Assembly: GCA_030390025.1 (NCBI GenBank)
Contig: CM059437.1
Location: forward strand, 17,112,001 to 17,176,000
Direction of reading: 5' to 3'
Source of the DNA: Squalus acanthias
Taxonomy: Eukaryota
Length of the DNA stretch: 64,000 nucleotides
Part shown: positions 28,778 through 64,000 of the stretch, piece after piece
Position numbering within the stretch: the first letter of the stretch is position 1
Layout: the number at the start of each line of letters is the position of its first letter
The notes under the pieces: generated by a model
The model's database searches: none
What the model was told of the DNA's origin: nothing
The model's input: only the letters and a program-made list of their open reading frames with translations
Program-made: the position numbers and the translations under genes

Positions 28778-28971
28778 AACACGAGAAATCGACTGTAATC
28801 GAGAATGGAGAAATCCGATTGAACGGGAAAGGGAAAAAGATCCGAAAGCCGAGGACCATCTACTCGAGTCTGCAGTTGCAAGCCCTGAATCATCGCTTCC
28901 AACAGACGCAGTATTTGGCACTGCCCGAGAGAGCAGAGCTGGCAGCCTCTCTCGGACTCACCCAGACACAG
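28778..28971 (+). CDS. DLX4: Distal-less homeobox 4, coding exon 2 (homeodomain N-part)
   Basis: Acceptor CTCCAAG|; (E)[64 protein letters not shown]; donor CAG|GTAGGG. Frame is consistent with exon 1. Confidence 0.95.
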
Positions 28972-29244
28972 GTAGGGAGCTGGCCACAACCGATTCTCCT
29001 CTCTTAGAGTCTGAGAGTCCACTTAAAAAAATGCAACCTCTTTGTTCTTGGGGGAACTCACACAGAGGCCGTTCTTGAAAAAGTGTGCAAATTTAACCCC
29101 GTTTGACAACCACAGGTCAGTTCTCAAACTCAAAAAAATTCCACACCGTAGCAGGTCTTTAGTAAAAGGCACGGAATTTGCATACCTCAAAGTATTCGCG
29201 ACGAACGAGGTACAAAAATTCCAGCAATAACCCTTCGAATTCTT

Positions 29245-29269
29245 AAATAACAACAGAAAACGCTGGAAA
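29245..29269 (-). mobile_element. 25-bp truncated insertion of a Penelope-derived short element with a 16-bp TSD
   Basis: AAATAACAACAGAAAACGCTGGAAA matches the ends of the copies at 54396 and 62439. It is flanked by AACCCTTCGAATTCTT at 29229-29244 and 29270-29285. Confidence 0.85.
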
Positions 29270-32076
29270 AACCCTTCGAATTCTTGTAGGGTTCAGTCGA
29301 GATCCCACCGCACTTAAAAGCTGTTAATATAATTCTGCATTCGACTGCAATGTTTATGTCCCTGCTCAGGTTTTGTTTTAATGACAGCGTGTGCTGTAAA
29401 GATGCAAGTAGACTGTGTTTGTACCGAAGCATTGTACCACTGCTCAACAAAATGGCAGAGGATAATTACAGGACTTCTGTGTAACGCCACTTTTAGAAGT
29501 TTTCTTGTGGGATGTTTCTAGTTAATCTGCTGAAGGGTGTGCGTTGGAAATTTGTATGTGATGCAGAAGCCCTTATTATATCCGTTAAATTACAAGAATT
29601 TGGGGGCAAAATAAATTGGTAATCGTTTACGCATCATCCATTTTTATAAAAGGTAACTTTAAAAAAAATGTGGTGCAGCTTAACAACCATTCTCCAGGAA
29701 ACTCAGTTGTATGTACTATGACTTGAAGATCAGAATTGAACAGCGCCTTTTCAATTCCTACGTAAGGGACTCAGGACAATTGTGTCATTTTCTAAAACTG
29801 CCATTTGCTCAGGGCAGTGGATTTTTTTTTAAATGCCAAATTTACCTCCTCCAAAATGGCCGCTAGTAATGAAAAGATAGCCCCCTTCCAATATTCCCCA
29901 TCTATTATATTTCAGAACTCCTGATAATGTGGTGCATGAAACAAATTCGTACTATAGCGCATAGGTAGACGGCGCATCGACTCCTCCACACAGTTGAAAT
30001 CATTACACTTTTCAACGCCGCACAGTGAACCAGTCCATTGTTGTCATGCACCCTTCACACTTGTAAAAACACAGTAAGCTCTCAATATGTAATTCAAATG
30101 TTTTGAAGTTTTCATAAGTTTATCAATTTTCTTTTCGTGCTATTGAATGACACTTTTTTTTAAAGTGTGCATAAAAAACCTCAAATTTCTAGAAAACTGG
30201 AAAATATAACTTGCTTCCCGTGAACAATTCACATGCAGCACAGCTCAAGCTATGTGTGCTTTCCTTTCCTAAGGCATTCTGCTGTTTTTGGTATTCCTGG
30301 CGCTTTCAGTTGAGTTCCTGTAAATCGCACATTAAAAATGTATTTCGCATGACTTGTCCATCATAGGATTTCAAGTTTGTACAGGCATTAATAGTTATCC
30401 AGAAAATCTGTTACTAAAGAAAAGAACCAGATTACGTGTGTATGGAAATCTCATATCTCACAGAGAGATAGCCTCTTAATTCGGAATATAATACATTTAG
30501 AATTGATCATGATTATCACCGTAGCGCCGTCCTGTCAAACGAATGATTTTCGTTTTAATTATGTAAATATTTATCCCAATTACAGCTGCCGAACATAAAT
30601 CCGTAAATATGAAATTAAACTAGTAAGAGCATTTTGTTTCATGTCTTAAAGATTCGGAAACAAAACATTGCAACAACGCGGGCTGTAAAATGCCTATATA
30701 GACCTTTATTCCAAACAATAGTTTGCTTGCATCTTCTAAAATAATAAACACTACAGTGTTTCAAATTCTTAGCAACTGTTCTGGCTGCAATTGGTCTTGT
30801 GTTATGCTAGAATGTATGTGTTGTATTGACAATAATTCGCCCCAATGGAACTTTAAGAAAGCAGCTAACACAGCCAGATCATGTGCTGGCGAACGCCACT
30901 TTGACATTGGCGTTGTGTCTGGTCTACAAATGTTCGCTACATAACCACCAGTTATTTCCACATCGAAACACGTTGAAGTCAATATGCTGAAAATAATAAC
31001 TTTATGCAGACGTGCAAATAGGCCCAAGGAAGGGACACGTTTTTAAAGAGAGAGGCGGTTTTAAAAGTTTGCTGCAGGTTCCACAGTCTAAATGGAAGTA
31101 CAGACTCCTTACAGAAACAAATGGCAGTTTTCTGTACAAGGGAGCGTGCTCAACAGATCAGTATAAAATAAACTATAACCATACTGCTGGCAAATACTGG
31201 GTGACATTTTCCCAATGTGCAATACTGATTCAACGCTGAGGGTCTTGCATGGTCCTGTTAGTATCTTCTTGTGCCACTGTCTTTTCGCGTAAAGTATTGG
31301 GCCGGGAAAGAAACTAAACAGCTGGTTATCTTTAGCAAGGAACCAAAGCTCCCTATAGTCATGTTCTATGTGAAACTATAGACTCTCGCATTTTAATGTC
31401 GATCTATAGGTCAATTAAAATCACTTGTGATTTTGCGCCAGTCTATAGCTTTTTACTACTACTGACCGGTTGAACGTGCACCACTTTATACCAAACTCCT
31501 TGTCATTTTTGCAAGGAATCTGTACTCTCATGTAGACTGTGGCATCTGATCCGACTTACAGCTTGCGTATAAAACCGCCTGTCTCTTATGTGTCCTCTCC
31601 TTGTGTTTTTTTTGCATGTCCATATTGAAACCTTTTTAAAACGCCATTATCCCATTCCTTTATTCATCCCACTCATTTTCTTTTCGAAGCTCCTAAATGT
31701 GATTGCAGTAATTATTTACTGACGGCCTGCTTTTCAAGAGCAGCCTGAATGTTCAGGCATCACTGGTTTGACAGGATCATTGGCAAAGGGCTGCGGTAGC
31801 TTGAAGCCTTTTCTATATTACACATCAGCCCTTCATAAACATTAACAACTGTGAATGTAGTTTGCTTTTACAAACATGATTTCAAATACATTGAAATCGA
31901 AAACGGGCGGCGTTTTGGCGGAATCACTTGTGAATGTAAACACATGGCTAATCCATTAAAAAAAAACAGTGGACTCTCTTGCATTCTATAAAGCCGTATG
32001 CGCCAAGTTATTCGAGTGTAGCGTTTCAACTTAACGGTGCAGCAAATGTGATGCGTTTGTTTTAATTTTATTTCAG

Positions 32077-32328
32077 GTGAAAATCTGGTTTCAGAACAAG
32101 CGCTCCAAGTACAAGAAGCTGATGAAACACGGATCCAGCGTGCAAGAAGGCGACCACCTGCCCACCTCCGCTGCTTTGTCCCCATGTTCGCCCAATATCC
32201 CACCAGTCTGGGACGTTACCATGGCAAATAAGGGCGCCACTATGCCACCGAACAGCTACATTAACAGTTTTGGGTCGTGGTACCCGCCGCCCCACCAGGA
32301 CAACATGCCAAGACCCCAGATGATGTGA
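32077..32328 (+). CDS. DLX4: Distal-less homeobox 4, coding exon 3
   Basis: Acceptor TTTCAG|; [19 protein letters not shown]...WDVTMANK...[23 protein letters not shown] and linkage to Dlx3 favour Dlx4 over Dlx6. Total 248 aa. Confidence 0.93.
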
Positions 32329-33003
32329 TTGACCAGGAGTACAATCTACCCCACAAACTTTTTATCATGTAAAACAAAAAAAAAATCAGTGTCCACATGA
32401 TTTGAAGTAGTCTTATGGACGAGAAAAGACGACTGGTTAGAGATAACAATGACTATATGCTTTCAGTCATATCTAAACAGGTTTGTTCTAGAAATACAAT
32501 GGGTATATAGAGTCAGACTCCTCTAATGAGCTTTGTATGATGTTTGGAATTCTATTGGAGAAGTTTGATGCATCTATAATCTACGTTGTGAATTGCAAAA
32601 AAAGGACTGATTTTATAGCTATTCTATTAAGCTCACTTTTAATGTTGTTTTAACAAAAGAAAAACGCATTTTTACTCCAGGATGCAGATCCTTCTTCGTT
32701 GGGTAAAATGCATAGGCTGTATTTCAAAGTGTTCACTGATAGGCCGTCCCAATCCCTTCTTAGGGCAAGTGCCGTATCAGCTTTCTTTGTGTATTTGTAT
32801 TTAATTACCGCAATTCCAGATTGAAGCATTGTGTAATTTACCGTATATAACTTCAGCCAGGCCGAGTTGTAAACATCTGTTTTAGTTGAGGAGCATCTGA
32901 CTGGAATATTCAGGGCTTTGTTTTTGAAAAGAACAATCTGTGTCAGTGTGGAGAGAACGCGATGAATTCAAACACCTACAACCACCAAGCTGCGTATAGG
33001 TGG

Positions 33004-33212
33004 AATAGAACAGAAAGAGCTGGAAATACTCAGCGGGTTCCCCAGCGTCTGTAAAGAGAAAAAAAGACAGACCAACGGGCTTTGATCCTTGATCAGAAAT
33101 TCCTAGAAGTTCTGAAAAAAAAGTCAATACCTCAAACATTAACCTGTCTTTTTACAGCTGCTAAGGGAAATGCTGTTTTTCCAGCGTTAAAAAAAATCAG
33201 ATTGCCAGCACT
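33004..33212. mobile_element. Old, decayed copy of the Penelope-derived inverted-repeat element
   Basis: AACAGAAAGAGCTGGAAATACTCAGCGGG... and GTTCTGAAAAAAAAGTC...AAACATTAACCTGTC...TTCCAGC resemble the arms of 62439-62780. Confidence 0.6.
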
Positions 33213-35539
33213 TTCATGTTTGTTCTGTATATAATTGAACTGTTTTTGGGGACAGTTGAAGGAAACTTTTAAAATTCACATTTCAATATAGGTCCATTAA
33301 AACAGCGCATGCAATTTGTATTGTTATTCTGCACAGTAGTTTCATCCAGGCCCGTCTGCCATGTTTAAATTCAAATGATTGCTGTTCAAGATTTTCAACC
33401 GTTGAAAATCACTAGAGGTGGAAAGGCTTTACACTGGGTCGTACCCGCCCGTTTTCCCCACAGGGAAATGATCGCCCCCACCACCCACTCCACTCCCCGT
33501 TCCCTGCAGACCCTCAAACATGAACAATGCAATTCGTGATGAGTGTGGTGTGTTATACAAGATGAACTGGACATGGCTCCCTTTTGAAATACAGCCTATG
33601 TAGAGAAATAAAAAAGGGATATGTTTAGCTCATCCAAGCAATATGAAGGCAAAAGGTGTCTTGGAGAACGAGAGAACACAGTACGTGTGTGTATATATTG
33701 TTAAATTAGTTGTAAATAGTGCATATGTATTATGTCTCATTATTCTAAGTAAAACAGTGATACGCGTTCAAAGCATCCTATCTACACCCAATTCGGAAAA
33801 ACATGGTTACTCAATTTAACAGTAAGTTTCTCAGGATAATAGAAGCCGGAGTGTGTTAGCATTTTTTTTTAAAGCAATGCCGACTTACTGTGGATTTAAC
33901 TGTAATTATGTGTAAAGGAAAGGCACGGCGTTTGCATGTAATTGATCAAACTATTCCATTCATTCCACATCCCTTCACAATTTCTCGCTTACATTTCCTT
34001 GGGGTCAAGCATAGACATGAAGCTTAATAGATTTCTTTTTAATATAAAATGTCTGCGGTCACGTTAGAAAGTGGAGGAAACGTGCCTTTTTTTTGCATGA
34101 CCACATATTAATTTGCCGAGAAGAACTGGTGCATTTTTTTTTGGAAATGTTGTTATTTGTCTTTATGATTAAAAAAAAAATACCCTGGACTTCTAAAAAT
34201 TCAGCTGTGGTTTCCAGTGTGGCAACCGAGGGCCTTACCTATGTATTTATCTCAAGTGACCTGGGGTTTCCGAGAGATTGGGAGAACGTTAGTTTAGTGA
34301 GATCAAGGGCTGGCTCGCAAATTTCCTTAGATTGTTGCTTCTCTTTTTAATGAAACGCAACAGCTGGCGAGATTAACATGATGCCGAGGCAGCTTTAAAA
34401 AAAAACATCTAAGACAAAAATACGTTTTCAGGGCGGGGGTGATTTATTTTCTACTTCACAATAAGCGTAAAAATGGCACATGATAAGATCCTAACGTGAA
34501 AATGAGACAAAAAAAAATTAAAGTCGGTACTTGTCACACGAGGAATAATTGCAGGTAATAACCTGTCTTTCCAATGTTCAGTGTATGTATTGTCTCTTGA
34601 AGCTTCCGGCATATGTACTTCACCCTAACCTACCTGTGGCCAATCGATTTTGTCACTGACGAACAGTGCCACATTATTTTTAACGCCCCGACATGTATAT
34701 TTAATTGCATTTGTTGACATTAATCCTTTCTCTTGCCTTTCATTCCCATTCATCCTGATCAGCCCTCCTACAGATGCACCTAGATGATGAAATTTATTTA
34801 GTTCTCCGCTTTTTACCACCCCCCCCCCCCCCCACCACCCGCCTTCCTTAAAATAATAAAATGGTGGGAACACTGTACATCGAATCAGCATTTTGTGTGC
34901 CTTTTACTATCTGCAATACGTCACTGGAGGCCCATCCTAGCGTCTGTGCTAATTGTGTTCCATGTAAACCATTCACTAATGGCAAATAACGCGTTTTATA
35001 GATCCGTGATTTAGATTTTGTTCGCCAACATGTTTCGAAACACATGCTATCGGATGTATTTCTTTACTGAATATTAATGAATAGCTGCAGTCAGCCTCTG
35101 GTCAGCCCAGTGAACATATAAATCCGTCCGACCAAAGGTGATTGATTAAGTTGTAATATGTGCTGATTGTCAGTCGGGACTAACGGCCTTTAAGCCTTTA
35201 GGCGTGGCAGAATGTGGTCGACGTTTTCTTAAAAAACATGGAAGCGAATAAATCTATATTCCCTGTTCAAAGGTCTGACAGATACACCTGTGTCTAACAT
35301 TCCCAATTAAGAAAGGTATTACTTACCACGTGTCTCTGATCGCCACTTGTCATGCCTCACAAACTACAACACGTATTGAAATCCATGGTTAGCTCTCCCA
35401 ATTTTTTGTCAAAGTCAGTCTACAAGACAAGATAGTGGTGTTTACAGATTTTAATGCATAAAAGCTGGCATGTCAAGCCTCCCCCCGTAACATCTGCACT
35501 GGAAACCGTGTGCAAAGCCCACTTCTCTGCTATTTTAAG

Positions 35540-40122: not shown

Positions 40123-40620
40123 AATCATAGAATCATAGATAATCATAGAATCATAGAATGGTTACAGCACGGAAGAAGGCCATTTGGCCCGTTGAGCCCT
40201 TGCCGGCTCTCTGCAAGAGCACTTCAGCTAGTCCCACTCCCCCCGCCCCCCCCCCCCTTTCCCTGTAGCCCTGCAATTATTTTTCCTTCAGGTACTTATC
40301 CAATTCCCTTTTGAAAGCCGTGATTGAGTCTGCCTCCACCACCCTTTCAAGCAGTGCATTCCAGATCCTAACCACTGGCTCTGTAAAAAAAAAAAGTTTT
40401 TTCTTGCGTTGCCTTGGGTTCTTTTGCCAATCACCTTAAATCTGTGTACTTCGGTTCAGGACCCTTCTGCCAATGGGAACAGTTTCTCTCTATCTACTGT
40501 GTCTAGACCCCTCATGATTTTGAACACCTCTATCAAATCTCCTCTCAACATTCTCTGCTCCAAGGAGAACAACCCCAGCTTCTCCAGTCTATCCACATAA
40601 CTGAAGTCCCTCATCCCTGG
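40123..40620 (-). mobile_element. 5'-truncated CR1 LINE (RT C-terminus, 3' UTR and microsatellite tail)
   Basis: PGMRDFSYVDRLEKLGLFSLEQRMLRGDLIEVFKIMRGLD, with a (ATTCTATG)n tail at 40123-40160. Confidence 0.92.
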
Positions 40621-41734
40621 ATAATGGACAAGGTTGTCAGTAAAACAATGCAACCGATATGTCTGCATATTTAATAATGACTGATAAATGATCATTACAT
40701 TTTAACTGCAACTTGCAATTGATATTTAACGCCTCCTACACAGCCGCCACCCTTGTATATGATCTGGCGACGTAAGTTAATTCTTTTGAATTATGCATTC
40801 GGAAAGTCTCCTTTTCCACCTGATTTTTACAGGTGCCAGTGCCGATTGAAACAGAAATGATTCAATAGAGGTCCAAGCTCTTTCTCGAGTGATTTGGTTT
40901 AGAGTTGTTGGGGAATTGCTGGAGTTATTAAAATTATCACTACAGAGGGCACAACCATTAATTACACCGTAGTCGGAATAACAGGGAAATGAATGTTGGT
41001 TTTGCCTCTGGTACCCCCGGCGCATCCTGCAAAACAGAGCAATTCTAAAAGTTCTCAACCTCTCTTTTCTCGTGGGCTTTGGGTTTCTCCGTGCAATAGA
41101 TTTAATACTACGGCGTATATTTTGCAACATGACACACACACACACACACATTCCCTTCAATTGTATCTAAGAGACCGCTGTTAGGATTTCGTCATGTCAT
41201 TTTAATTACTACCTAAGATATTTCCTAATGCAGCATGTCTATTACTCAGACTTATTTATTGCTAGCACCATTATGTACACAAGTGGAGAAAAATAACCGT
41301 GACTCACGAGCTTCCTTGTTGTAAATAGTATGGATTTATGCTCTGATTTGTAGCTAGGCACCGCGCGCTTGTATGCTTTATTAATATAAACCGCACGCGT
41401 ATTTACATTCTGTGGAGAGAATATGAGGGTCCTCACTATCCACCTATAGATGCGCAAACCAGTGCAACTATATCCAGGAATCGTATAAAATGGACCACCC
41501 GCGGATCTGTTTATATACAGATAGGACTGTATAAATACAATACCGAAAACTGTGTAGGAAACACATCTATTATAAGTTTTAAAACATGTACCGTATTAGC
41601 ACTGAAAGCAATTACATTCGTTGTTCCAGTAATATTCTTTGCTTTTCGGTGGTGGGGAAGCTTTTGGAAACAATAATCCGGGAGAAAATTAACAGCTGCA
41701 TGGACTAATAAAGGAGAGCCAGCGCGGATTTGTT

Positions 41735-41845
41735 AAGTGAAAGTCCTGTTTGACTAACTTGATTGAGTTTTTTTGATGAGTTAACAGAGAGGGTGGATGA
41801 GGGCAGTACAGTTGATGTTGTGTACATGGACTTTCAAAAGGCGAC
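41735..41845 (+). mobile_element. Short internal CR1 RT fragment
   Basis: Encodes SCLTNLIEFF...VDEGSTVDVVYMDFQKA, homologous to the ORF2 of the 55-59 kb element. Confidence 0.75.
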
Positions 41846-43865: not shown

Positions 43866-43932
43866 TCTTCCGAAACAGTAAAAGATAAAAAGTTCAAGAG
43901 TTTCAAAGTTTTGAAGTAAAAAACAAAAAGTT

Positions 43933-44229
43933 TTAATAGACTGCTCCAGTACTCTGAGGCGGCGGCTGGTGCAGTGAGTTTGTTGCTGGTAAGTGAGAGC
44001 CTGAGGGGTACCAGTGATTGAAGTCTTCCAGGTAGTTCTGAGACGAGTTGTGCGGGGTCTGATGTTGGAGGGGGTTCCTAGTCGAACTATGGCTCTCCCA
44101 AACGGCCGGAGAAGGGGGTGAATTGCATGCCATCGAATCGCTGTTGTTGGGACTGTGCTCCATTGTGAGCTCTCCGTTTTTGTAAAGCTTCTTAAACTTG
44201 GATCTTCTGTTCTGAAACCAGATTTTCAC
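43933..44229 (-). CDS. DLX3: Distal-less homeobox 3, coding exon 3
   Basis: Polypyrimidine tract and CAG|; [41 protein letters not shown]...GAVY* is diagnostic of Dlx3. Confidence 0.96.
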
Positions 44230-45189
44230 CTGACCAGGCGGGAAAGAAAAAATAAAGAGAACTGGTGGGTAAGACTTTGTTGTCAAGTACCGAGAAGATG
44301 ATAGAGAAAGCATGTAAATACTTAGCAAAAGGCACCATTACAAATTCACCCCTCAAAAGTAGATAGATAGAACTATTATTGTAGAAATAATTTTACTGTT
44401 GCCCCTTTATGGTATCTAGGACTTAAATGACATTTTTTCTGTTGTTCATTCTTTAGTACTTTCTACTTAATACATGTAATCTTTTTAAAATAAAACTCGA
44501 TTGAGTCTCTTTTACTCCACGGATACTCTTGTGTAATCAGTACCAACCCAATCACCTCCCCCCCCCCCCCCCCCCTCCACACACGCACACACAATGTAGA
44601 AAACTCGCTTCTGAGGCCTTTTGGCTGAAATATATTCACATTGTTCCAATGATTTCTCGCGCATTTAGAGAACTCCACATGTCTGCAGATAGTTACAATG
44701 CCGGATCTGTGCAAATGTTTGCTCAATCCCTCTTTGTCACTGAATACATTCTGGTAAAACCAATCCAGTTCTATGTCTGATCATGAATTTGCCCTACCTA
44801 CTGTATGTAACAGGTTTCCACTGTCATCATTTCATCAGCTCTTATTTTCTAAAGTTAGATATACTAGTAACAAGAGGACAGAGCTAGTCAATCAGTGAAA
44901 AACGAACGATATAAATACCTATAGTAAAACATACATAATAGCATAAATAATTCTATGAAAGATTACTTGAGCTACAGAAAAAGCAATGGGAAAATGCAAG
45001 TAAGTGTATTGATATGGTAATGCGAGATTGTGAGGAATGTTTGGGAAACAAGTATGGAGAGAAAGCTTGCATTTAAAGTGTCCCATTATCACGGGTAACA
45101 TGCTTTAGGTTGTTGGTGTATCTGCTTTTGAGCCAGTGTAGAAACAAAAAGCGAGGCCTGTCTCAGCAATAAAACGGGTGTGGAGCTTA

Positions 45190-45498
<309 letters not shown>

Positions 45499-47247
45499 TC
45501 ACAAACAATTAAACATAGACTCTCTGAATTGTCGAGATTTCACATTAAAAAAAAAGCAACGCAGCAATTAAGAGGTCAGACGAGGCAAAGAATTTCTTCC
45601 TCACTGCAAGAATTCCAATTCACGTTGTAAATGCAAAGTAAAGCAAATGCAACACAGAGTGAACATCTTATATTGTTACATTCCTTCAGGAGTGCAACAC
45701 CTCAAAACTCTGTGCCCAATTCATTACACTAGTTAAGTCAATGTTTTATTTAATGGTACAAATTACAGAAAGAGGGAAGAAACTGCTAATTATTATTATT
45801 GATAATTATTATTACAAGATGCAAACCAAAGCTTTATCATCTCATTTGAAAAGTGAAATCCCTTTTCAGGTTTCCTGTTCTACGTCATTCATACACAGTC
45901 TAATCTTTATTTATTAATGACTTTATGTATTTACCTATGTAGTGTGCCCATGGGGTAATGGAATCCTTAAACGATTAAGCAAGCCACCCTGACACAGTGA
46001 AAATGCACAGTGCCGGAGCGAGGAAACTAACCATAGGACAATCTTTACAGTGTTCCATTTGGAATCGTGTGACCATTTTATTATTTTCGCCTGCATTTGT
46101 CCCTTTAAAATAGTGGCAGGAAGAACTATTCATTACTCGGAATTAAAACTCAACTTTCCCTGTCCGCAATGCACGTTTGCAGCACATTCTAGCTTGCTCT
46201 GAGTATTTCACTATAGTCGGGTCTGCAGGTTAACAGCGACCCTGACCAAAGAGAGATAGAGTTCATTCCGGCCAAGTGCTGAAACCAGTTTATGGTCCAC
46301 GCCCTAACTCGAACCCAATGCCCCTACCTAGTTTCTGGCCTCACAACCCCTGTTGGGTTCAAATGTCTATAAACAGGTTTTTGGACTGTCTCATTCCTAT
46401 ATACATAACAAGCTTGTACTCTGAATGATTCTTTGTATCATTGCTAAGAAATATAGAGTAACAAGTTTAAACAGTGTGTTTAATCGTGATCTCGTCTTAA
46501 CTTTCTTAGAGACAGATGCTTTCGATTGGTGGTAATTTCCACTTTTTCGCATACAGAGAGATTTAAAAAAAAGCCCCAGTTAAATATACAAACTGATTTT
46601 CACTTTCACACGTGAATTGGTGTTTTCGCTCGAGTACCGTGCAACTGATTTTGCACCAGTTTCAGCCATTGCTCGAATGAACATTTGTGTCATTTCTTAT
46701 TTGATATTGTCCAACGCGCCTGAGTATTCTGCACCCGAGAACGTTTTAGTCACCCCGGGTGGTTCAAACAATTACAATGCATTCCCTTGACAAAGTACCG
46801 GACACCCTGTCGTCCAGCATGAGGTGGCACCGTACTCTGGTTGGATAATGACAGCGCCAGACTACCTCGAATGGTTCAGCTCTAGAGATTACATGTGCAT
46901 ATTCTATCGAGTTAAACACTCCATTCTAATACATGCATTCTTTCTGCAGTGTTTTAGCTATCTCAGATCATGGAAAGGTTTAGTAAAATAGCACCTAGTA
47001 AACTGAATGATCGCTTTAAGAAGCGTCCGGTCAGGTGTGAACGCTCGGATTCAAAGGCTACACTGCACTTGCACTGCATTCTCCCTTCAACAGCCATTCA
47101 AGCAGCAGATCTCAAGCTCTCTCCTGTAAGGGAATGCAGCATTATATGACTACCCGGCAATTAGTTTGCACCGAGCGTTCGGCTGGAATGTCTTCCAGTT
47201 TGTTTCTGGCTACAGACAGCGATTGGGAAATTTGAAAGCGCCTTTAC

Positions 47248-47581
47248 CTCTCTCGGCCGCGGATATTTGATGATCCCTGTTGAAATGCCCATACTGACGG
47301 TACGAGTTACTGTAAGCATACTCGGGCTTTTGTGAATAGGAGCCAGGCCCGGGAATGTTGCTCAGATTGAATTGATGGTACGGATAGTGGTTCACCGGCT
47401 GAGAATAGGCTGAAGTCGGATAATAATCGTGCTGAGGATGACAGGACTGTGGGTTATAGTAACCAACATCTGTAGCCGTAGACTCTGGCAGAGTTGGAGA
47501 ATCTTTCGCAGGGTGGCATCCCATAGAGCCCTGGATGTCCGTAAGAAGACTGGGCAGCTTTTTCTCATAGGTTCCACTCAT
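47248..47581 (-). CDS. DLX3: Distal-less homeobox 3, coding exon 1
   Basis: [42 protein letters not shown]...YPYHQFNL; phase-1 donor G|GTAAAG. Total 273 aa. Confidence 0.95.
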
Positions 47582-47592
47582 TGTTCCAAACA

Positions 47593-47622
47593 ATATATAT
47601 GTATATATATATATATATATAT
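47593..47622. repeat. (TA)n microsatellite just 5' of the Dlx3 ATG
   Basis: ATATATATGTATATATATATATATATATAT. Confidence 0.9.
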
Positions 47623-47754
47623 TAAAAATAGACGATTTAATCTTTAAAATGCAAAGCTCAAACTATGCACACATCACTCTGCGCCGTGGAGACGAGATCC
47701 TTACAGCAACTGCAACTCAAAGCAAACTGATGTAACCCAACCAGCCCAGCGTGG

Positions 47755-50574: not shown

Positions 50575-50775
50575 TCAAAAGCAAAATACTGCGGATGATG
50601 GAATTCTGAAATAAAAACAGAACATGCTGGAAATACTCAGCTGGTCAGGCAGTATCTGTGGAGAGAGACACAGAGTTCTGACAAAAGGCCGTCATCCTGA
50701 AAGGTTAACTCTGTTTCTCTCTCCACAGATGCTGCCTGACCTGCTGAGTGTTTCCAGCATTTTCTGTTTGTATTT
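50575..50775. mobile_element. Penelope-derived inverted-repeat element, older copy
   Basis: Arms AACAGAACATGCTGGAAATACTCAGC... / ...GCTGAGTGTTTCCAGCATTTTCTGTT, a degenerate hammerhead core at about 50674-50712, and an imperfect TSD CAGTTA(C/T)TAGT. Confidence 0.8.
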
Positions 50776-51499
50776 CAGTTATTAGTCGTTACAATCTGTT
50801 GTATTGAGTGATTGAAACATTGCGACTGTTGAAATAGAACCAGGAAATGCTGGAAATGTCTAGCTGATTGGTTAACATCTGGGGAAAAAAGGCAAGTCAA
50901 TATTTCTGGCACTAACCCACCAGCAGGGTTCTCTGAAACATTCAGGTGCTGACTGGCCCACAAAACATTTCTAGACTTTTCTGTTGTTTCAGATTTCTAG
51001 TATTCAAGTTTCTTATTTCTACGGAGAAATTGTCTCATACATTTAAAAACGCAGTGGGAACAGTCAAAGTAATAGGCCACTTATACTAGTCTTATGCTGA
51101 TGAAAAGCAGTTTCAGCTTTGCATTAACACAGACAGTGCGGTGTAATTCAGGTACAAAGTCACCCAAAATGCACTTAGACAAGAGGGAAAGACCATCTCC
51201 AGGAGATAGTCCAACACTGCTTAGGCTTTGCACCTGCTGCAATTTAATTAAAGTCTGGCACAAGCCAAGTTTAAAAGCTTAATTTTAACATTTTTGATCT
51301 TACCAGAGAACTGACTGTCCCAGTGAGACTGGTACTTAGAGTACAAATGACTCCTTATATTACAAATCAATTTAAGCACACAGTAGTGCATAACTTATAC
51401 CAACACAACATATTTAGTGAGAACAGTCCCAAAACAGTGAGACTCACTGAATGATAATGAGACTTGCTGTGCTGTAGGTGAGTTAATTTTATAATGACT

Positions 51500-51930
51500 A
51501 CAGTCTGGCTCAGTTGGTTGTCCTCTTGCTTCTAAGTCAGAAGATTATGGATTTAAGCCTCTCTCTATGAGTTGAACACATAATCTAGACTGATACTCCA
51601 GTACCGAGGAAACACTGCACTGTCAGAGATGCCATCTTTGGGATGAAATGTTAATGCTAGACTCTGCCCACCCGTTAAAGTGGACATAAAAGTCCCTTTA
51701 GTATGATTGGAAGAAGAGCAGGAAGTTATCTTGGTCAACATTCCTCCCTCAACACTGCCAAAAACAGGTCATTTATCTTGTTTCTGGGATTTTGCTGTGT
51801 GCAAATTGGCTGTGGTGTTTGCCTGCTTAAAATAATAAACCACACTTCAAAAAAATAGTAATTCAATGGATGTAAAGCACTTTGAGATTTCCTGAGAGTA
51901 TGATAGAGTGCTATATAAATACACAAGTAA
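51500..51930 (+). mobile_element. tRNA-derived Deu-domain SINE (SacSINE1-like), diverged near-full copy
   Basis: TGGCTCAGTTGG A-box, CTGCACTGTCAGAGATGCCATCTTT core, GAAGAAGAGCAGG, and tail GTAAAGCACTTTGAG...GTGCTATATAAAT. Confidence 0.8.
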
Positions 51931-54395: not shown

Positions 54396-54651
54396 TAATA
54401 ACAACAGAAAACGCTGGAAAAACTCAGCAGGCCAGGCAGCATCCGTGGAGAGAGAAAGAGAGTTGACGTTTCAGGTCGATGACCTTTCATCATAACTGGG
54501 AAGAGCTGGAAATCAAATAGATTTAAGGCCAGGGTAAAGCTGGGAAAAGGGGGAGGGGATAAAGGAACAAAGGAGGAGATGAAGAGACATTAAGAGACAT
54601 TAAGAGATATGCAAGGCTAGAGGTGGTGTTAATGTGACAGATTAAGGCTGA
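54396..54651 (-). mobile_element. Penelope-derived short element with a 15-bp TSD
   Basis: Flanked by ATGAATGACCAGCTA (54381-54395 and 54652-54666) and closely similar to 62439-62640. Confidence 0.88.
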
Positions 54652-54906
54652 ATGAATGACCAGCTAATCTGTTTTGGTGGCGTTGGTTGAGGGGATGAAT
54701 AATGGCTAGAACATGGGGGGACACTCTCTGCTCTTGTTCAACTAATGCCATGGAAACATTTATGCCCATTGAACAGGCAGGCAGGTCTCGGCTTGAGAGT
54801 TCATTTAAAAGACAGCATCTCTGACGGTGCAGCACTCCCTCATTACTGCACTGGAGTGTGAACCTCAGTTATGCGGTCAAGCCTGGGAGTGGAGATGAAC
54901 CCACAT

Positions 54907-55426: not shown

Positions 55427-58400
55427 AGAACATAGAACATAGAACATAGAACAGTACAGCACAGTACAGGCCCTTCGGCCCTCGATGTTGTGCCGAGCAT
55501 TGTCCGAGACCAAGATCAAGCTATCACACTCCCTATCACTCTGGTGTGCTCCATGTGCTTATCCAATAACCGCTTGAAAGTTCCTAAAGTGTCCGACTCC
55601 ACTATCACAGCAGGCAGTCCATTCCACACCCCAACCACTCTCTGAGTAAAGAATCTACCTCGGACATCCCTTCTATATCTCCCCCCATGCATCTTATAGT
55701 TATGCCCCCTTGTAACAGCTGCCTCTACCCGAGGAAATAGTCTCTGAACATCCACTCTATCTATCCCCCTCATCATCTTATAAACCTCTATTAAGTCGCC
55801 TCTCATCCTCCTCCGCTCTAAAGAGAAAAGCCCCAACTCCCTCAATCTTTCCTCATAAGACCTCCCCCCCAAACCAGGCAGCATCCTGGTAAATCTCCTT
55901 TGCACTCTTTCCAATGCTTCCACGTCCTTCCTATAGTGAGGTGACCAGAACTGCACACAATATTCCAAATGTGGTCTCACCAAGGTCCTGTACAGTTGCA
56001 GCATAACCTCACGGTTCTTAAACTCAAACCCTCTGTTAATAAACGCCAACACACCATAGGCCTTCTTTACTGCTCTATCCACTTGAGTGGCAACCTTCAG
56101 AGATCTGTGGATATGAACCCCCAGATCCCTCTGCTCCTCCACATTCCTCAGAACCCTGCCGTTGACCCTGTAATCCTTATTCAAATTTGCCCTACCAAAA
56201 TGAATCACCTCGCACTTATCAGGGTTAAATTCCATCTGCCATTTTTCGGCCCAGCTCTGCATCCTATCAATGTCTCTTTGCAGCCTACAACAGCCCTCCA
56301 CCTCATCCACTACTCCACCAATCTTGGTGTCATCAGCAAATTTACTGATCCACCCTTCAGTCCCCTCCTCCAAGTTATTGATAAAAATCACAAACAGCAG
56401 AGGACCCAGCACCGACCCCTGTGGCACACCGCTGGTAACTGGTCTCCAGTCCGAAAATGTTCCATCCTCCACCACCCTCTGCCTTCTATGAGATAGCCAG
56501 TTACTTATCCAATCGGCCAAATTTCCCTCTATCCCACAACTCCTTACTTTCTTCATGAGACGACCATGGGGAACCTTATCAAACGCCTTACTAAAATCCA
56601 TGTATACGACATCAACTGCTCTACCTTCATCTACACACTTAGTTACCTCCTCAAAGAATTCAATCAAATTTGTTAGGCAAGACTTACCCTTCACGAATCC
56701 GTGTTGACTATCCCTGATTAAGTTGCCCCTTTCCAAATGGTCATAAATCCTATCCCTCAGGACCTTTTCCATTATCTTACCAACCACCGAAGTAAGACTA
56801 ACCGGCCTATAATTACCAGGGTCATTCCTATTTCCTTTCTTGAAGAGAGGAACAACATTCGCCACTCTCCAGTCCTCTGGCACCATCCCCGTGGACAGTG
56901 AGGACCCAAAGATCAAAGCCAGAGGCTCTGCAATCTCCTCCCTTGCCTCCCAAAGAATCCTAGGATATATCCCATCTGGCCCAGGGGACTTATCGACCCT
57001 CAGGTTCTTCAAAATTGCTAAAACATCTTCCCTCAGAACATCTACCACCTCCAGCCTATCCACCTTTATCACACTCTCATCCTCAAGAACATGGCCCCTC
57101 TCCTCGGTGAACACTGACGAAAAGTATTCATTCATCACCTCTCCTATCTCTTCTGACTCCATGCACAAGTTCCCACTACTGTCCTTGACCGGCCCTACCC
57201 TCACCCTGGTCATTCTTTTATTTCTCACATAAGAGTAAAAAGCCTTGGGGTTTTTCTTGATCCGACCCGCCAAGGACTTCTCATGCCCCCTCCTAGCTCT
57301 CCTAAGCTCTTTTTTTAGCTCATTCTTTGCTACCTTGTACCGCTCAATCGACCCAACTGAACCTTGTTTTCTCATCCTTACATACGCTTCCTTTTTCCTC
57401 TTGACTAGACATTCAACCTCTTTTGTGAACCATGGTTCTCTCACTCGGCCATTTCCTCCCTGCCCGACAGGGACATACCTATCAAGGACACGCAGTAATT
57501 GCTCCATGAAAAAGCTCCACTTTTCGTTTGTGCCTTTCCCTGATAGTTTCTGTTCCCATCTTATACTCCCTAATTCTTGCCTAATCGCATCATAATTACC
57601 CCTCCCCCAATTATAAACCCTGCCCTGCCGTATGGCCCTATCCCTCTCCATTGCAATAGTGAAAGTTACCGAATTGTGGTCACTATCTCCAAAGTGCTCT
57701 CCCACATACAAATCAAATACTTGGCCCGGTTCATTACCCAGTACCAAATCCAACGTGGCCCCACCTCTTGTCGGCCTATCCACATATTGTGTCAGGAAAC
57801 CCTCCTGCACACACTGTGCAAAAACTATCCCATCCGAACTGTTTGACCTATAAAGGTTCCAATCAATATTTGGAAAGTTGAAGTCACCCATGACAACTAC
57901 TCTGTGACCTCCACACCTATTCATAATCTGCTTTGCAATTTCTTCCTCCACATCTTTATTACTATTTGGGGGCCTGTAGAAAACTCCTAACAACGTGACC
58001 GCTCCTTTCCTATTTCTAACTTCAGCCCATATTACCTCAGACGGCAGATCCCCCTCGAACTGCCTTTCTGCCGCTGTTAAACTATCCTTGATTAACAATG
58101 CTACTCCTCCACCTTTCTTACCAACTTCCCTACTCTTACTGAAACATCTATACCCCGGAACTTCCAACAACCATTCCTGTCCCTGTTCTAACCATGTCTC
58201 CGTAATGGCCACCACATCGTAGTCCCAAGTACCAATCCACGCTCCAAGTTCTCCTACCTTATTCCGGATGCTCCTTGCATTGAAGTAGACACACTTCAAG
58301 CCATCTTCTTGTCTGCCGGTACATTCCTGCGACCTTGATACCCTCCTCAGTACCTCCCTACACTCACCACTGGCTCGTGGACTACAGCCCTTTTTCCCAT

Positions 58401-59207
58401 CCCCCTGACAAATTAGTTTAAACCCCCCCGAAGAGCCGTAGCAAATTTCCCTCCCAGGATATTGGTGCCCCTCTGGTTCAGGTGCAAACCGTCCTGTTTG
58501 TACAGGTCCCACCTTCCCCAGAATGTGCTCCAATTATCCACATAACTGAAACTCTCCCCCCTACACCATCCCTGCAGCCACGTGTTTATCTGCACTCTCT
58601 CCCTGTTCCTCAACTCGCTAGCACGTGGCACCGGCAACAAACCAGAAATTACAACATGGTTTGTACTGGCTCTCAGCTTCCAACCTAGCTCCCTAAATTC
58701 CTGTTTTAAATCCCCGTCCCTTCTCCTACCTATGTCGTTGGTACCGATGTGTACCACGACTTGTGATTGTTCCCCTTCCCCTTTGAGGATTCTGAAAACA
58801 CGGTCCGAGACGTCACGGACCCTGGCACCCGGGAGGCAACATACCATCCGTGAGTCTCTTTTGCTGCCACAGAACCTCCTATCTGTCCCTCTGACTATTG
58901 AGTCCCCAATAACTATTGCTCTCCTGCTCTCCCCCCTTCCCTTCTGAGCCACAGGGACCGACCCAGCGCCGGAGATCCGGTCACCGTGGCTTACCACTGG
59001 TAAGTCGTCCCCCTCAACAGTATTCAAAGCAGTATACCTGTTACTGAGGGGAACGACCACAGAGGATCCCTGCACTGACTGCTTCCTCCTAGCCCCTCTC
59101 ACCGTCACCCATCTATCTTCATGCTTTGGAGTAATTACATCCCTGAAGCTTCTATCTATGACCTCCTCTGCCTCCCGAATGATCCGAAGTTCATCCAGCT
59201 CCAGCTC
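55427..59207 (-). mobile_element. Young CR1-clade LINE, 5'-truncated within ORF1
   Basis: Uninterrupted ORF2 and ORF1 remnant, a short 3' UTR and a (TTCTATG)n tail at 55427-55452. Possible TSD CATTA at 55422-55426 and 59208-59212. Confidence 0.96.
55516..58533 (-). CDS. CR1 ORF2: AP endonuclease plus reverse transcriptase
   Basis: EN motifs YFNARSIRNK, AITETW, MGDFNFP and GDSDH; RT motifs PGPDGI, NYRPVSLTS, QHGF, DFSKAFDKV, GVPQGSVLGP and KFADD. No stops. The listed start is TTG, and the true entry point is probably near 58420. Confidence 0.95.
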   Translation of the reverse strand: MEHILGKVGPVQTGRFAPEPEGHQYPGREICYGSSGGFKLICQGDGKKGCSPRASGECREVLRRVSRSQECTGRQEDGLKCVYFNARSIRNKVGELGAWIGTWDYDVVAITETWLEQGQEWLLEVPGYRCFSKSREVGKKGGGVALLIKDSLTAAERQFEGDLPSEVIWAEVRNRKGAVTLLGVFYRPPNSNKDVEEEIAKQIMNRCGGHRVVVMGDFNFPNIDWNLYRSNSSDGIVFAQCVQEGFLTQYVDRPTRGGATLDLVLGNEPGQVFDLYVGEHFGDSDHNSVTFTIAMERDRAIRQGRVYNWGRGNYDAIRQELGSIRWEQKLSGKGTNEKWSFFMEQLLRVLDRYVPVGQGGNGRVREPWFTKEVECLVKRKKEAYVRMRKQGSVGSIERYKVAKNELKKELRRARRGHEKSLAGRIKKNPKAFYSYVRNKRMTRVRVGPVKDSSGNLCMESEEIGEVMNEYFSSVFTEERGHVLEDESVIKVDRLEVVDVLREDVLAILKNLRVDKSPGPDGIYPRILWEAREEIAEPLALIFGSSLSTGMVPEDWRVANVVPLFKKGNRNDPGNYRPVSLTSVVGKIMEKVLRDRIYDHLERGNLIRDSQHGFVKGKSCLTNLIEFFEEVTKCVDEGRAVDVVYMDFSKAFDKVPHGRLMKKVRSCGIEGNLADWISNWLSHRRQRVVEDGTFSDWRPVTSGVPQGSVLGPLLFVIFINNLEEGTEGWISKFADDTKIGGVVDEVEGCCRLQRDIDRMQSWAEKWQMEFNPDKCEVIHFGRANLNKDYRVNGRVLRNVEEQRDLGVHIHRSLKVATQVDRAVKKAYGVLAFINRGFEFKNREVMLQLYRTLVRPHLEYCVQFWSPHYRKDVEALERVQRRFTRMLPGLGGRSYEERLRELGLFSLERRRMRGDLIEVYKMMRGIDRVDVQRLFPRVEAAVTRGHNYKMHGGRYRRDVRGRFFTQRVVGVWNGLPAVIVESDTLGTFKRLLDKHMEHTRVIGSVIA

Positions 59208-59210
59208 CAT
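58413..59210 (-). CDS. CR1 ORF1 (SGNH esterase-like domain), N-terminally truncated
   Basis: IVIGDSIVRG, CCLPGARV, VHIGTND and DGLHLN are the SGNH blocks typical of vertebrate CR1 ORF1p. Confidence 0.9.
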   Translation of the reverse strand: MELELDELRIIREAEEVIDRSFRDVITPKHEDRWVTVRGARRKQSVQGSSVVVPLSNRYTALNTVEGDDLPVVSHGDRISGAGSVPVAQKGRGESRRAIVIGDSIVRGTDRRFCGSKRDSRMVCCLPGARVRDVSDRVFRILKGEGEQSQVVVHIGTNDIGRRRDGDLKQEFRELGWKLRASTNHVVISGLLPVPRASELRNRERVQINTWLQGWCRGESFSYVDNWSTFWGRWDLYKQDGLHLNQRGTNILGGKFATALRGGLN

Positions 59211-59934
59211 TAGTTTTTTAAAAAGCTTAACTATTAGCCCCTTTTCTGTATTTAAGCCTTCTAGTTCATTCTAAGAGGCTTTCAAATACTGGTCAAAGAA
59301 AAAGAAAACTTTTGCTTTTAAGTTTTGTGGCAGCCTGGGATATAACGCAAACAACAATGAAAGCAACAAAATGTCCCTTTCCCGAAATGCACTGATCTTA
59401 TTAGAGTGTTCAGTTTGAAAGCTGACAGTACAGACGTTTTGCATAATGAGGCTGGGTAATTTCTCATAGTGAATCCTCATACAACTGTGCTAATTTAAAT
59501 ATTTTGAACTTTTTTTGACAGAATGGTAGAGGAAACACACATAAGTGATATTAAAATCTAGTCTAAATGGAACAAAAGGGGTTTGATTTAAATTCCATGC
59601 AAATAAATGTCCTGCTGTTGCTGATGGGTAATATTTGCCAAATTCTAAACACAGGTTCATTATTCATCTATTCCAAAGTTGATTTTAAGTCAGTGTCACT
59701 AGTTTATAACTAAACGTGGATATTTTCAGGTGTTGAGGGATTCTGAGAATGGTTCTATCCAAAAATCAACTTAGATTTCTCTTTTGGATGTTGATCTTCT
59801 GTGCATTCCCAGCATTTTACTACATTTTGTTTATAGATATACAGGCAAAATGCAATGCAAACCTGTGAGATTGTATGTATCCTTTGTTTTACCCAGCTAC
59901 ATTTTAATGTATCATGTTAAACATACACGGTAAT

Positions 59935-60370: not shown

Positions 60371-60779
60371 TAAGAATGAAAATTGTGTAGAATAGATTGC
60401 AACACTCAAAGAGTAAGAGTAAGATCGAAACAAAGTGAACATTAAAAAAAATATTTGTTCTAAGGGTACGGGCAACGCTGGCAAGGCTACATTTATTGTC
60501 CATCTCTAGGTGCCCTGAGGGCATTAAAAGACAACCATTTAGTGTGGGACTGGAGTTACATGTAGACCAGACTGGGTAGAGGTGGCAGGTTCCCTTCCCT
60601 GGAGAATATTAGTGAACTAGTTCGGTTTTTACAAGAATCCAGCACATCTCATTGTTATTTTATCTGGTGCTAGCTCACAAATTGCCACTAATTAATTCAA
60701 TACCCCCACTTGCTATGGTGGGATTTAAACTCACAACCTCTGGATTGCTGATCCAGTACCATAACCACTAGGCTGCCAT

Positions 60780-61525
60780 AACTATTTCAGAAAATAACCC
60801 AGTAAGCTTCCACCAGGCCCTGTGTATCACTGCTACTGATGATATTTCTGTACCTTGTTATACCTATCCCTAGTACTTCAATATCTGGCTATGCCCTGAG
60901 TTATACTCTATTCCTGGTGTTTCAGTCACTGGCTGTACCCTAGGTTACACCCTATCAATGATATTTCAGTACCTGATTTATTGCTGCGTTATACCCTATC
61001 CCAGTGTCAGCCGTGGCTCAGTTGGTAGCACACTCGCCTCTGAGTCAGAAGGTTGTGGGTTCACAGTCCCACTCCAGAGACTTGAGCACAAAAATCTAGG
61101 CTGACACTCCCAGTGCAATACTGAGGGAGTGCTGCATTGTGGGAAGTGCCGTCTTTCGGATGAGACATTAAAGTCTGCTCTCTCAGATGGACTTAAAAGA
61201 TCCCATGGCACTATTTCGAGGAAGAGCAGGGGAGATCTCGCTGATGTCCTGGCCAATATTTATCCCTCGCTCAACATCACAAAAAACAGATAATCTGGTC
61301 ATTATCCATGTTCCCTGTAATTTGTGGGGGGGCCTCGTGGTCCCTTTAGCGGGCTGCGTGACCCATTCAAAATTCCACGCACGCGGGTTTTTTTCAATTT
61401 AATAGCCGGCTTGCCAGCTGCGCGGGACCCCTATCCTTGGGTTTTCAGTATCTCATGTTACCCGGGTAATACCTTATCCCCAGTAATTCAGTATCTCCTG
61501 TTAACCATGTTATACCCTACCCCTG
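60780..61525. repeat. Degenerate minisatellite interrupted by a SINE and a MITE fragment
   Basis: Recurrent TTATACCCTATCCC..GTATTTCAGTA units at about 60860, 60900, 60945, 60990, 61430, 61470 and 61510. Confidence 0.55.
61003..61308 (+). mobile_element. tRNA-derived Deu-domain SINE (SacSINE1-like), 5' part
   Basis: GTGTCAGCCGTGGCTCAGTTGGTAGCACACTCGCCTCTGAGTCAGAAGGTTGTGGGTTCACAGTCCC (Pol III A and B boxes) followed by the Deu core. Confidence 0.88.
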
Positions 61526-62502
61526 TAGAGCTAAAAGATAATCGATAGACAGAGCAGGTTGTAGCTCATTGGCTGAACACTTGGCCATGGAAAAATTTAA
61601 GGGGAGGATACCAATGAAAAGTAACCTACATTATTGTAAAATTGATAGAGGAACCTGAATTTGAAGTTCCTTATTACGACACCTATCTGCAGTCAACTGT
61701 ATGTTGCAGTTAGTATTTCAAGGGAGTTGCTGCCTTATTTCTAGTTCTGGGTGGTCTGAATATGCACAGCATTACCAAGATGTCTGTAGTAAATTTGAAA
61801 AGAATGAAAACAGGAACTCCCTTCCAAATCCGAGAACATTTTAACTTCATACCACAGATGAGAGCACCTGAGAAAATGTGTCTGCTTTTTAATATATGGT
61901 TTGTTGCCACATGAAACAGAGGCTGGCCCTTTTCAATGTGATAATAAACAGGAGTGTGAGGCCCATGCTTTATATTTTCAAACCCTCAATTTAGATATCT
62001 TACAAGTCTGACAGAAAGATCCTTGGGGGGTGCTGGGGGATGTGGGGCAACACACTGGTGCTCTAACACACTATCCCATCGAGTGAAAGGACTTGGCTTG
62101 ATGCCAATGAATCCTCAAATGGTGAGTTTCCCAATCTCAATCATGCCAACATAAGGAGTCATTGAGCAGAGGCCAGGCACTTCCCCGCAGCGAGGGAGGG
62201 AACATGAGAAATTTACACCTCTGATTCGCTCCTGAAGCTACCAATCCACATGTTGATCCACAGAATTGTGGGACAGAACTTCGCGAGCCCGATGCCCCAC
62301 AGACACCAATTGAACATTAGCTAGAGGCAGCAGGTGGCACCTCTAAGGTCAGAGGTCGACACTGTCATGTGACTATCTTAAACAAAAGCTGCGTGCCTGT
62401 GAGACCAGAGGAGTGTTGAATGGATAAGGATTCACAGAAATAACAACAGAAAACGCTGGAAAAACTCAGCAGGCCAGGCAGCATCCGTGGAGAGAGAAAC
62501 AG

Positions 62503-62540
62503 AGTTAACGTTTCAGGGCGAAGACCTTTCGTCAGAACTG
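62503..62540 (-). ncRNA. Minimal type I hammerhead ribozyme motif (antisense arm)
   Basis: Minus strand reads CAGTT-CTGACGA-A-AGGTC-TTC-GCCCT-GAAA-CGTT-AACT, with one mismatch in stem II. Confidence 0.65.
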
Positions 62541-62640
62541 GAAAAAAGCAGGAAATGAAATAGATTTAAAGCAAGGATAAAGCTGGGAAAAGGGGGAGGG
62601 GATGAAAGAACAAAAGGAGAGATTAAGAGACATGGAGAGA

Positions 62641-62680
62641 CAGTTCTGACGAAAGGTCTTCGACCTGAAACGTTAACTCT
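62641..62680 (+). ncRNA. Minimal type I hammerhead ribozyme motif
   Basis: AGTT-CTGACGA-A-AGGTC(TTC)GACCT-GAAA-CGTT-AACT: catalytic boxes CUGANGA and GAAA, perfect 5-bp stem II, palindromic AACGUU helix III and stem I AGUU/AACU. Confidence 0.75.
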
Positions 62681-63231
62681 GTTTCTCTCTCCACAGATGC
62701 TGCCTGGCCTGCTGAGTTTTTCCAGCGTTTTCTGTTGTTATTTCGGATTTCCAGCACCCGCAGTATTTTGCTATCGTATCAGGATTCACAGACCATTGGC
62801 GAACTCAGCAAAGGTAATGGTTTAAAGGGTAAGATTTCTGTGATAGCGTAAGGAGGAAATGTAGAATCTGTAGAAGAGTGGAGAGGAGGGAAGAAAGAGA
62901 AAAATGAAATAAGTAATCGTGAACACAGATACTAAACAAATAAAGCAACCTTAAGAGACAATAAATGCTAAAAGGAGTTGTGTAAAGCAAAATTAGAAGA
63001 AGGAGAAAAGTCACATGGGAGATTATCAGGACCATTGTGGGAAAGGTTAAGAAGTTCAGCAAGGCAATCCTGTCAGAATTGAGAATGCTAAAGAAGAGTT
63101 CCATAAAAGGAATCTTTTGAGAAGCTTTGGGAAATGCTGGAGTTAAACAGAAGTAGGAAACAATTTGGTTTGGAAAGAACAAGACCAACTGAAAAACTTG
63201 GAACAAAGTGGGACGAGCAATGAGTTATAAA

Positions 63232-63310: not shown

Positions 63311-63391
63311 CTCCTACTATGGAGACACGAGTCTAACAGAAATCGTTGGACATTCTGGCTGCTTTTAGATTTATAGAGGATTCCATTATTG

Positions 63392-64000
63392 TGCCCCAGG
63401 ACATCGCTGCAGGAGTTCCTCAGGGCAGTGTCCTAGGCCCAACCATCTTCAGCTGCTTCATCAATGACCTTCCCTCCAACATAAGGTCAGAAATGGGGAT
63501 GTTCGCTGATGACTGCACAGTGTTCAGCACCATTCACAACTCCTCAGATAATGAAGTAGTCCATGCTCGCATGCAACAAGACCTGAATGACATTCAGGCT
63601 TGGGCCGATAAGTGGCAGGTAACATTCGCGCCACAGAAGTGCCAGGCAATGACTATCTCCAACAAGCGAGAGTCTAATCACCTACCCTTGACATTCAATG
63701 GCATTACCATCGCCGAATCCCCCACCATCAACATCCTGGGGGTCACCATTGACCAGAAACTTAACTGGACCAGCCACATAAATACTGTGGCAACAAGAGC
63801 AGGTCAGAGGGGCAAGGTATTCTGCGGTGAGTGTCTCACCTCCTGACTCCCCAAAGCCTTTCCACCATCTACAAAGCACAAGTAAGGAGTGTGATGGAAT
63901 ACTCTCCACTTGCCTGGATGAGTGCAGCTCCAACAATACTCAAGAAGCTCGACACCATCCAGGACAAAGCAGCCCGCTTGATTGGCACCCCATCTACCAC
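63392..64000 (+). mobile_element. 5'-truncated CR1/L2-group LINE RT fragment, running off the window
   Basis: AGVPQGSVLGPTIFSCFINDL...MFADDCTVF...WADKWQVTFAPQKC...ILGVTIDQKLNW, with a frameshift near 63810. Confidence 0.9.

Follow-up and report, generated by a model that had tools for sequence, protein, structure and literature searches.

Opposed minimal hammerhead motifs in a 342-bp insert of Squalus acanthias: a probable integration product of a very abundant Penelope-like family

A 64,000-nucleotide stretch of the Squalus acanthias genome (GenBank assembly GCA_030390025.1, contig CM059437.1, positions 17,112,001 to 17,176,000; hereafter the window, in whose coordinates all positions are given) contains a short insert with long inverted arms, and each of these arms carries the core letters of a hammerhead ribozyme. 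Is this insert a unit that moves and cuts its own transcripts, or is it what is left after the integration of something else? The results of the current analysis indicate that the insert is no mobile unit, and that it consists of two 3' ends of a single high-copy family, both of them truncated on the 5' side. Very probably it is what a very abundant Penelope-like family, either autonomous or a non-autonomous derivative served by the same enzyme, left behind in an integration that was dead on arrival; we propose that it arose by the two-primer joining of cDNAs that had stopped early.

Two identical 12-mers, at 62427-62438 and 62781-62792, flank a sequence of 342 bp (62439-62780), which confirms the 342-bp insert and perfect 12-bp TSD described in an earlier note on this DNA. 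The inverted arms, put there at about 100 bp, measure 104 nt (62437-62540 and 62641-62744), are 98% complementary and lie 100 nt apart; they differ from each other at two places, 62518/62663 and 62486/62695. The right side carries a tail which starts at 62743 or 62745, and the insert is therefore asymmetric. The same tail is matched by the left end of another copy of the family, at 50575. The left 204 nt of the insert are 89% like a single-orientation copy at 54396-54651, which extends further, while in the right 140 nt this family end recurs in the opposite orientation, the 36-38 additional bases of the tail included. The match to the 54396 copy, together with the opposite orientation of the right piece, leads to the reading of the insert as two 5'-truncated ends that meet head-to-head, so that the 3' ends point outward. 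At the junction, about 2 nt (62641-62642) are compatible with both pieces and probably represent microhomology. Inverted truncated ends, a one-sided tail and a TSD are together the architecture of Penelope-like insertions, as had been proposed. The features of the insert and of its relatives are collected in Table 1.

Table 1. Parts of the insert and related copies in the window (strand "." where no orientation applies)
Feature	Positions	Strand	Remarks
Left TSD	62427..62438	.	12 bp, same letters as 62781-62792
Antisense end-piece	62439..62642	-	5'-truncated; 3' short (tail-less) end toward left TSD; 204-nt match to 54397-54599, 89%
Left minimal hammerhead motif	62503..62539	-	core intact; stem II broken at fourth pair (62518)
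Head-to-head junction	62641..62642	.	read by eye from alignment with 54396 copy
Sense end-piece	62641..62780	+	5'-truncated, tailed; 3' end toward right TSD
Right minimal type I hammerhead motif	62642..62678	+	sole descriptor match in window; predicted cut after 62674
Candidate ATG-led open frame	62697..62780	+	28 codons through end and tail; frame open from 62646, 45 codons
One-sided tail	62743..62780	+	36-38 bp by placement of the 2-nt left-end ambiguity; not in left arm
Right TSD	62781..62792	.	12 bp
Stub of short end	29245..29269	-	25 bp, 16-bp TSD, no hammerhead
Old decayed head-to-head relative	33004..33216 (approximate)	.	short left end, tail remnant right
Head-to-head relative	50575..50775	.	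tail left, short right end, other junction; core broken at G8
Old decayed head-to-head relative	50820..51010 (approximate)	.	short left end, tail remnant right
Single-orientation relative	54396..54651	-	256 bp, short end, 15-bp TSD; core broken at C3

The core boxes CUGANGA and GAAA, with an NUH cut triplet, are present in both arms. In the right arm the order is a 4-bp helix I, CUGACGA, one extra A, a 5-bp stem II with a 3-nt loop, GAAA, CG and UU, and this reading agrees with the cut position after 62674 that had been predicted. Helices I and II have at least 4 bp in this arm, whereas the left arm has a U-C mismatch; the extra base between positions 9 and 10.1 is A, and positions 15.2-16.2 are C-G inside a 6-nt palindrome. 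The right arm thereby shows the published features of a minimal type I hammerhead with a loopless palindromic helix III, the class to which it had been assigned. A descriptor for the minimal hammerhead, which we built from published features, matched the real window once (62646, + strand), and matched once over 500 dinucleotide shuffles of 64 kb scanned on both strands. In the left arm the fourth pair of stem II is U-C, and this arm therefore fails the descriptor. The claim of a hammerhead in each arm is thus sound for the right arm, which passes the strict descriptor, but holds for the left arm only as far as the core, its stem II being mismatched; most family contigs from the sequencing runs restore the pairing base at 62518. 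An Rfam search returned no hammerhead at gathering score in the whole window, and none with E up to 10 in 62300-62900, where the seven weak matches all lay far under the cut-offs.

The motif shares most of its features with the minimal hammerheads (min-HHRs) of metazoan Penelope-like terminal repeats, as these are described in the available text of Cervera and De la Pena (2014, PMC4209133): type I, a 4-bp helix I, CUGANGA followed by an extra base, GAAA, a loopless palindromic helix III and, as in several of the published examples, C-G-U-U at helix III and the cut. It differs from the published consensus in the first stem II pair (G10.1-C11.1), which is A-U in the right arm and G-U in a family variant; the G-C pair is found there in above 80% of cases and is not universal. 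Since A-U and G-U cases occur in the table of PMC4209133, the A-U pair is compatible with min-HHR membership. The same source, in the part available to us, describes min-HHRs as mostly dispersed single motifs, together with dual motifs on opposite strands 100-700 bp apart, and as numbering thousands per genome in coelacanth and Xenopus.

The five relatives named in the earlier note (at 29245, 33004, 50575, 54396 and 62439) all proved real, and a sixth, old copy lies at about 50820-51010. The three copies that were called the youngest do have TSDs of 12 (62439), 15 (54396) and 16 bp (29245), but the copy at 29245 is a 25-bp piece without a hammerhead; the TSD of the 50575 copy is 11 bp with one mismatch. 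A tail is present on exactly one end in 4/4 head-to-head copies (a small sample, in which two decayed copies were judged by eye), and both single-orientation copies (54396 and 29245, again a small sample) have the short end. Only one of the eight arms examined passes the descriptor and two keep CUGANGA; inserted copies decay, that at 54396 having lost C3 and that at 50575 G8. The junction differs from copy to copy in the window. With junctions that vary here and in same-species contigs, and with two copies that are one-armed, the proposal of an element built with two opposed ribozymes finds no support. In the 50575 copy, a single case, the antisense arm ends at the equivalent of the predicted cut and joins the sense arm via 4 helix I bases, a joint which could stem from a cleaved template or from mere palindromic microhomology.

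The window also contains two convergent Dlx-type homeobox genes, at about 27800-32330 (+) and 43930-47660 (-), with homeodomain and DLL_N Pfam matches and homeobox exons that are 80% alike. Two of the family copies, those at 29245 and 33004, fall within this gene pair, the former between two homeobox exons. An intact-looking LINE, which we take to be CR1-type by its motifs, occupies 55516-59270 (-) and encodes a 1005-aa ORF2 with endonuclease and RT as well as a 285-aa ORF1 with a GDSL esterase domain; further LINE RT fragments, frameshifted or broken by stops, are found at 63337-63843 (+) and 40283-41843. The tRNA-like sequence at 60711-60782 (-) is the sole Rfam match at gathering score and is probably the head of a tRNA-derived SINE, and pieces related to this repeat lie at 51506-51721, 54655-54905 and 61014-61303. 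A weak Myb/SANT-like domain match at 6790-7176 (+; E = 0.00024) is perhaps the remnant of a DNA transposon.

How could two opposed ends of one family come to lie within a single TSD? In published descriptions of Penelope-type insertions, a 5'-truncated copy lies in inverted orientation and one end bears a tail of 30-40 bp (PMC8557442, in its accessible part). The Adineta vaga elements Pen2/Pen2a (PMC3846280; PMC8557442) share with the present family the head-to-head ends, the one-sided tail of 30-40 bp and a TSD of about 10 bp; their ORF starts within the repeat, where the tail lengthens it from 12 to 22 codons, as it would from 15 to 28 codons here if the candidate ATG frame described below is the ORF start; the rotifer copy of PMC3846280 combines inverted ends, a 9-10-bp TSD, a 31-bp tail and an ORF start in the repeat that the tail extends from 12 to 22 codons. 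In contrast to what the available text reports for Pen2/Pen2a, both pieces in our insert are truncated inside the terminal repeat and are without RT or endonuclease sequence, and the TSDs are 11-16 bp. For the anole, the consulted part of PMC11167929 reports an element with two internal RT start sites whose spacing equals the tail, with cutting as well as extension of the two target strands. This element, the Poseidon element PAc of Anolis carolinensis, has its hammerhead beside the ORF start and the two RT start sites downstream of the hammerhead (PMC11167929).

By analogy with these systems, we propose a series of steps that may have produced the insert. The RNA of the family would end in a terminal repeat that contains a single minimal hammerhead as well as the opening codons of the ORF. 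The endonuclease of the element would nick both target strands, 12 nt apart, and each nick would prime reverse transcription, one at an inner start site, giving the short end, and the other at an outer start site 36-38 nt beyond it, giving the tail end. Both cDNAs would stop early, after about 200 and about 140 nt, and would be joined via a few matching bases, about 2 nt at 62641-62642 and, in the 50575 copy, the 4 nt of the helix I strands; repair would then yield the TSD. Two opposed hammerheads are present because both pieces are long enough to contain the motif. The two-primer route is inferred by analogy, and an alternative already in print is self-priming on the antisense template (PMC3846280, available text).

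The Penelope identity of the parent family is likewise inferred, and we searched for an ORF that would link it to the family. Counted from the ATG at 62697, an open frame extends over 15 codons as far as the short end and over 28 when the tail is included; it is a candidate for the start of the element's ORF. A Pfam scan of 65 of the 95 stop-to-stop frames of at least 90 aa in the window revealed no Penelope ORF. The short frame had no relevant match in protein searches, the shortness of the query making these weak negatives: a search of 1.84 billion representatives gave two matches, both to unrelated repetitive proteins, and further searches gave 1 and 10 candidates, none of them scoring, and no usable Atlas match. 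Of two DNA patterns scanned for, the first matched nowhere in viral, metagenome or genome contigs and the second nowhere in viral contigs; nine metagenome loci found with the second pattern were set aside as chance, all being 21-22-nt matches without wider likeness. At a distance of 550 bp from the insert, an RT fragment (63337-63843, +) was considered as a partner and rejected, as it is LINE-type and 31% identical to the ORF2 of the window's LINE. Membership of the Penelope group therefore rests on architecture and motif. Just before the ATG and right after the hammerhead, 62676-62699 has a pyrimidine tract and CAG, resembling a splice acceptor; this idea was dropped to a weak lead, as the left arm and the 54396 copy have CGG instead of CAG.

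The lack of a linked ORF, and the fact that the longest copy in the window is 256 bp, would also suit a parent of another kind. The animal non-LTR retrozymes (10.64898/2026.07.22.740005, in its available part) are, like the present copies, short non-coding hammerhead repeats related to Penelope terminal repeats, and in one chondrichthyan they are reported with a mean unit of 363 bp and a derivation from those repeats. On this account the parent would be a non-coding unit of 300-400 nt, arranged in head-to-tail arrays, with dimeric hammerheads and circular or monomer RNA, mobilised by a Penelope enzyme in trans, and the scar would have formed in the same way. However, retrozymes are defined in that source by head-to-tail arrays, whereas the copies of the window are single or head-to-head, and a self-comparison of the window found no head-to-tail pairs. 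A loopless helix III, a tail and an ATG frame all belong to Penelope terminal repeats themselves, and most of the listed joints in the sequencing runs (12 of 15 listed, 130 in total) are skips from the left to the right arm. We therefore regard a retrozyme parent as improbable.

These joints come from a survey of 24 sequencing runs, 20 of which contain part of the stretch and 16 at least half of its words. Four runs were aligned to a 701-bp stretch, with about 55% of run X1 and about 97% of run X2 read; runs with small word shares (X17-X20) were left aside. Both of these are DNA runs, and because their flanks are identical to the window, without differences, they come from the same species or a very near one. 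The 701-bp stretch collected 30,837 of 51,360,340 records in X1 and 44,185 of 19,478,237 in X2, with a summed depth of 10-20 on the flanks versus about a million or more on the arms, a depth which is not to be read as copy number; it points to a very large family. The earlier description of the family as highly active stands as regards its very high copy number and young look, but not as regards present-day mobility. The 12 arm-to-arm skips have 11 distinct left positions, as would be expected from other head-to-head copies with their own junctions. In a look for a truncation hot spot at the cut site, over the 15 of 130 joints and 12 of 101 between-letter rows listed, several breakpoints tracked places where the window itself departs from the family. 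The loose ends seen at 62546 and 62641 reveal another subfamily, which shares the hammerhead-bearing end but has a different sequence upstream. In X1 the contig on the left flank (62250-62432, depth 20.4) matches only as far as the middle of the TSD and leaves 23 letters over, and the contig across the right junction (62752-62950) has a depth of 11; depth is no higher on the right flank, and the 15 of 130 joints listed include none from an empty site. This pattern possibly reflects a heterozygous insertion. Run X21, raw reads of another organism, gave nine reads of 10.1 million and is uninformative, and run X15, which is only guessed to be RNA, gave 2,340 contigs in which A-to-G changes were not in excess over the DNA runs; these contigs are therefore no evidence of transcription.

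Could the insert itself nevertheless be a functional cassette, which spreads as a unit and cuts the transcripts of either strand? The core nucleotides are kept in both arms, and X2 contains a different inverted junction, a joint from 62536 to 62643, in a contig of depth 867 versus about 10 for unique flank; given this depth, some two-armed form has been multiplied in the genome. The behaviour expected of the transcripts points the other way. In a transcript of either strand the antisense arm precedes the sense motif, and in computed folds of the whole insert the two arms form hairpins of about 104 bp (-196 and -200 kcal/mol), in which the pair probability of stem II is 0.0 on both strands. The statement that either strand's transcript carries a hammerhead is hence true of the letters, while the computed fold hides the motif in a long duplex. 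The lone 40-nt motif favours another fold as well (-9.2 vs -4.0 kcal/mol), a cofold of two sense copies did not yield the double hammerhead, and a 140-nt sense piece was predicted to have no more structure than its shuffles (z = -1.06). The minimal hammerhead, according to the accessible text of PMC4209133, requires a second same-sense copy for helix III, and one such motif stayed intact as a monomer and was weakly cleaved as a dimer or trimer. The antisense arm has the palindrome but is unfit as a dimer partner, as it lacks the strand that completes helix I. Since the arms pair mutually, the hammerhead pair is probably silent, and on these predictions the opposed pair of the 342-bp insert is most likely inert. 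Together with the varied junctions, the single-arm copies and the 7/8 arms that fail the descriptor, this makes a functional cassette very improbable. That the insert is a miniature inverted-repeat DNA transposon with an incidental hammerhead likeness, as a short, non-coding, TSD-flanked piece with long inverted arms might suggest, is hardly credible, given a one-sided tail that leaves the arms not terminal on both sides, varied junctions, TSDs of 11 to 16 bp, single-arm copies down to 25 bp with TSDs of their own, and a hammerhead motif that is rare in shuffles.

We counted family variants as differences at no less than 5% of depth in the left arm, from a thresholded table in which reads may fit either arm. 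Within the motif, variants fall on 0/11 core positions and 7/26 other positions (P = 0.064), and in the remaining arm on 6/63 (core versus remaining arm, P = 0.37), so that by position count the core is not significantly conserved. Five of the seven variants keep the descriptor, compared with 31/111 (28%) of the possible single changes and 16/37 of the transitions; these five affect the free position 7, an A-U pair that becomes G-U, the loop, a U-A pair that becomes U-G, and U17, which becomes C, while the two that break the descriptor lie in the CpG of the palindrome. This distribution is suggestive, short of proof, of selection on the source elements.

Whether the hammerhead of the family cuts in vivo is a separate matter. 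Its signature would be a share of copies truncated exactly at the cut, with the cDNAs from opposite nicks joined via the helix I strands. The single 50575 copy has this look, yet we hold such cutting to be rather doubtful. The hammerhead of the anole element cut only with the element's protein and was dispensable for insertion in vitro (PMC11167929, available text). In the literature available to us, in part, we found no in vivo demonstration of Penelope hammerhead cleavage or of two-strand priming; if the family's hammerhead does cut, a genome with tens of thousands of copies could show both.

The motif class, its location in Penelope terminal repeats and the opposed dual motifs have been known since 2014, as the accessible text of PMC4209133 makes clear. 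No cartilaginous fish was seen in its tables as available, and no description of this particular family was found in the literature covered, mostly openly accessible papers. The present results add one family, probably of cartilaginous fish, to the class described in 2014, and indicate that the opposed hammerheads are a by-product of Penelope-like integration. With its very large size, young look, clean TSDs and two defined 3' ends, the family would let truncation points and tail positions be counted genome-wide, and such a count bears on cutting in vivo by weak ribozymes and on priming by both target strands.
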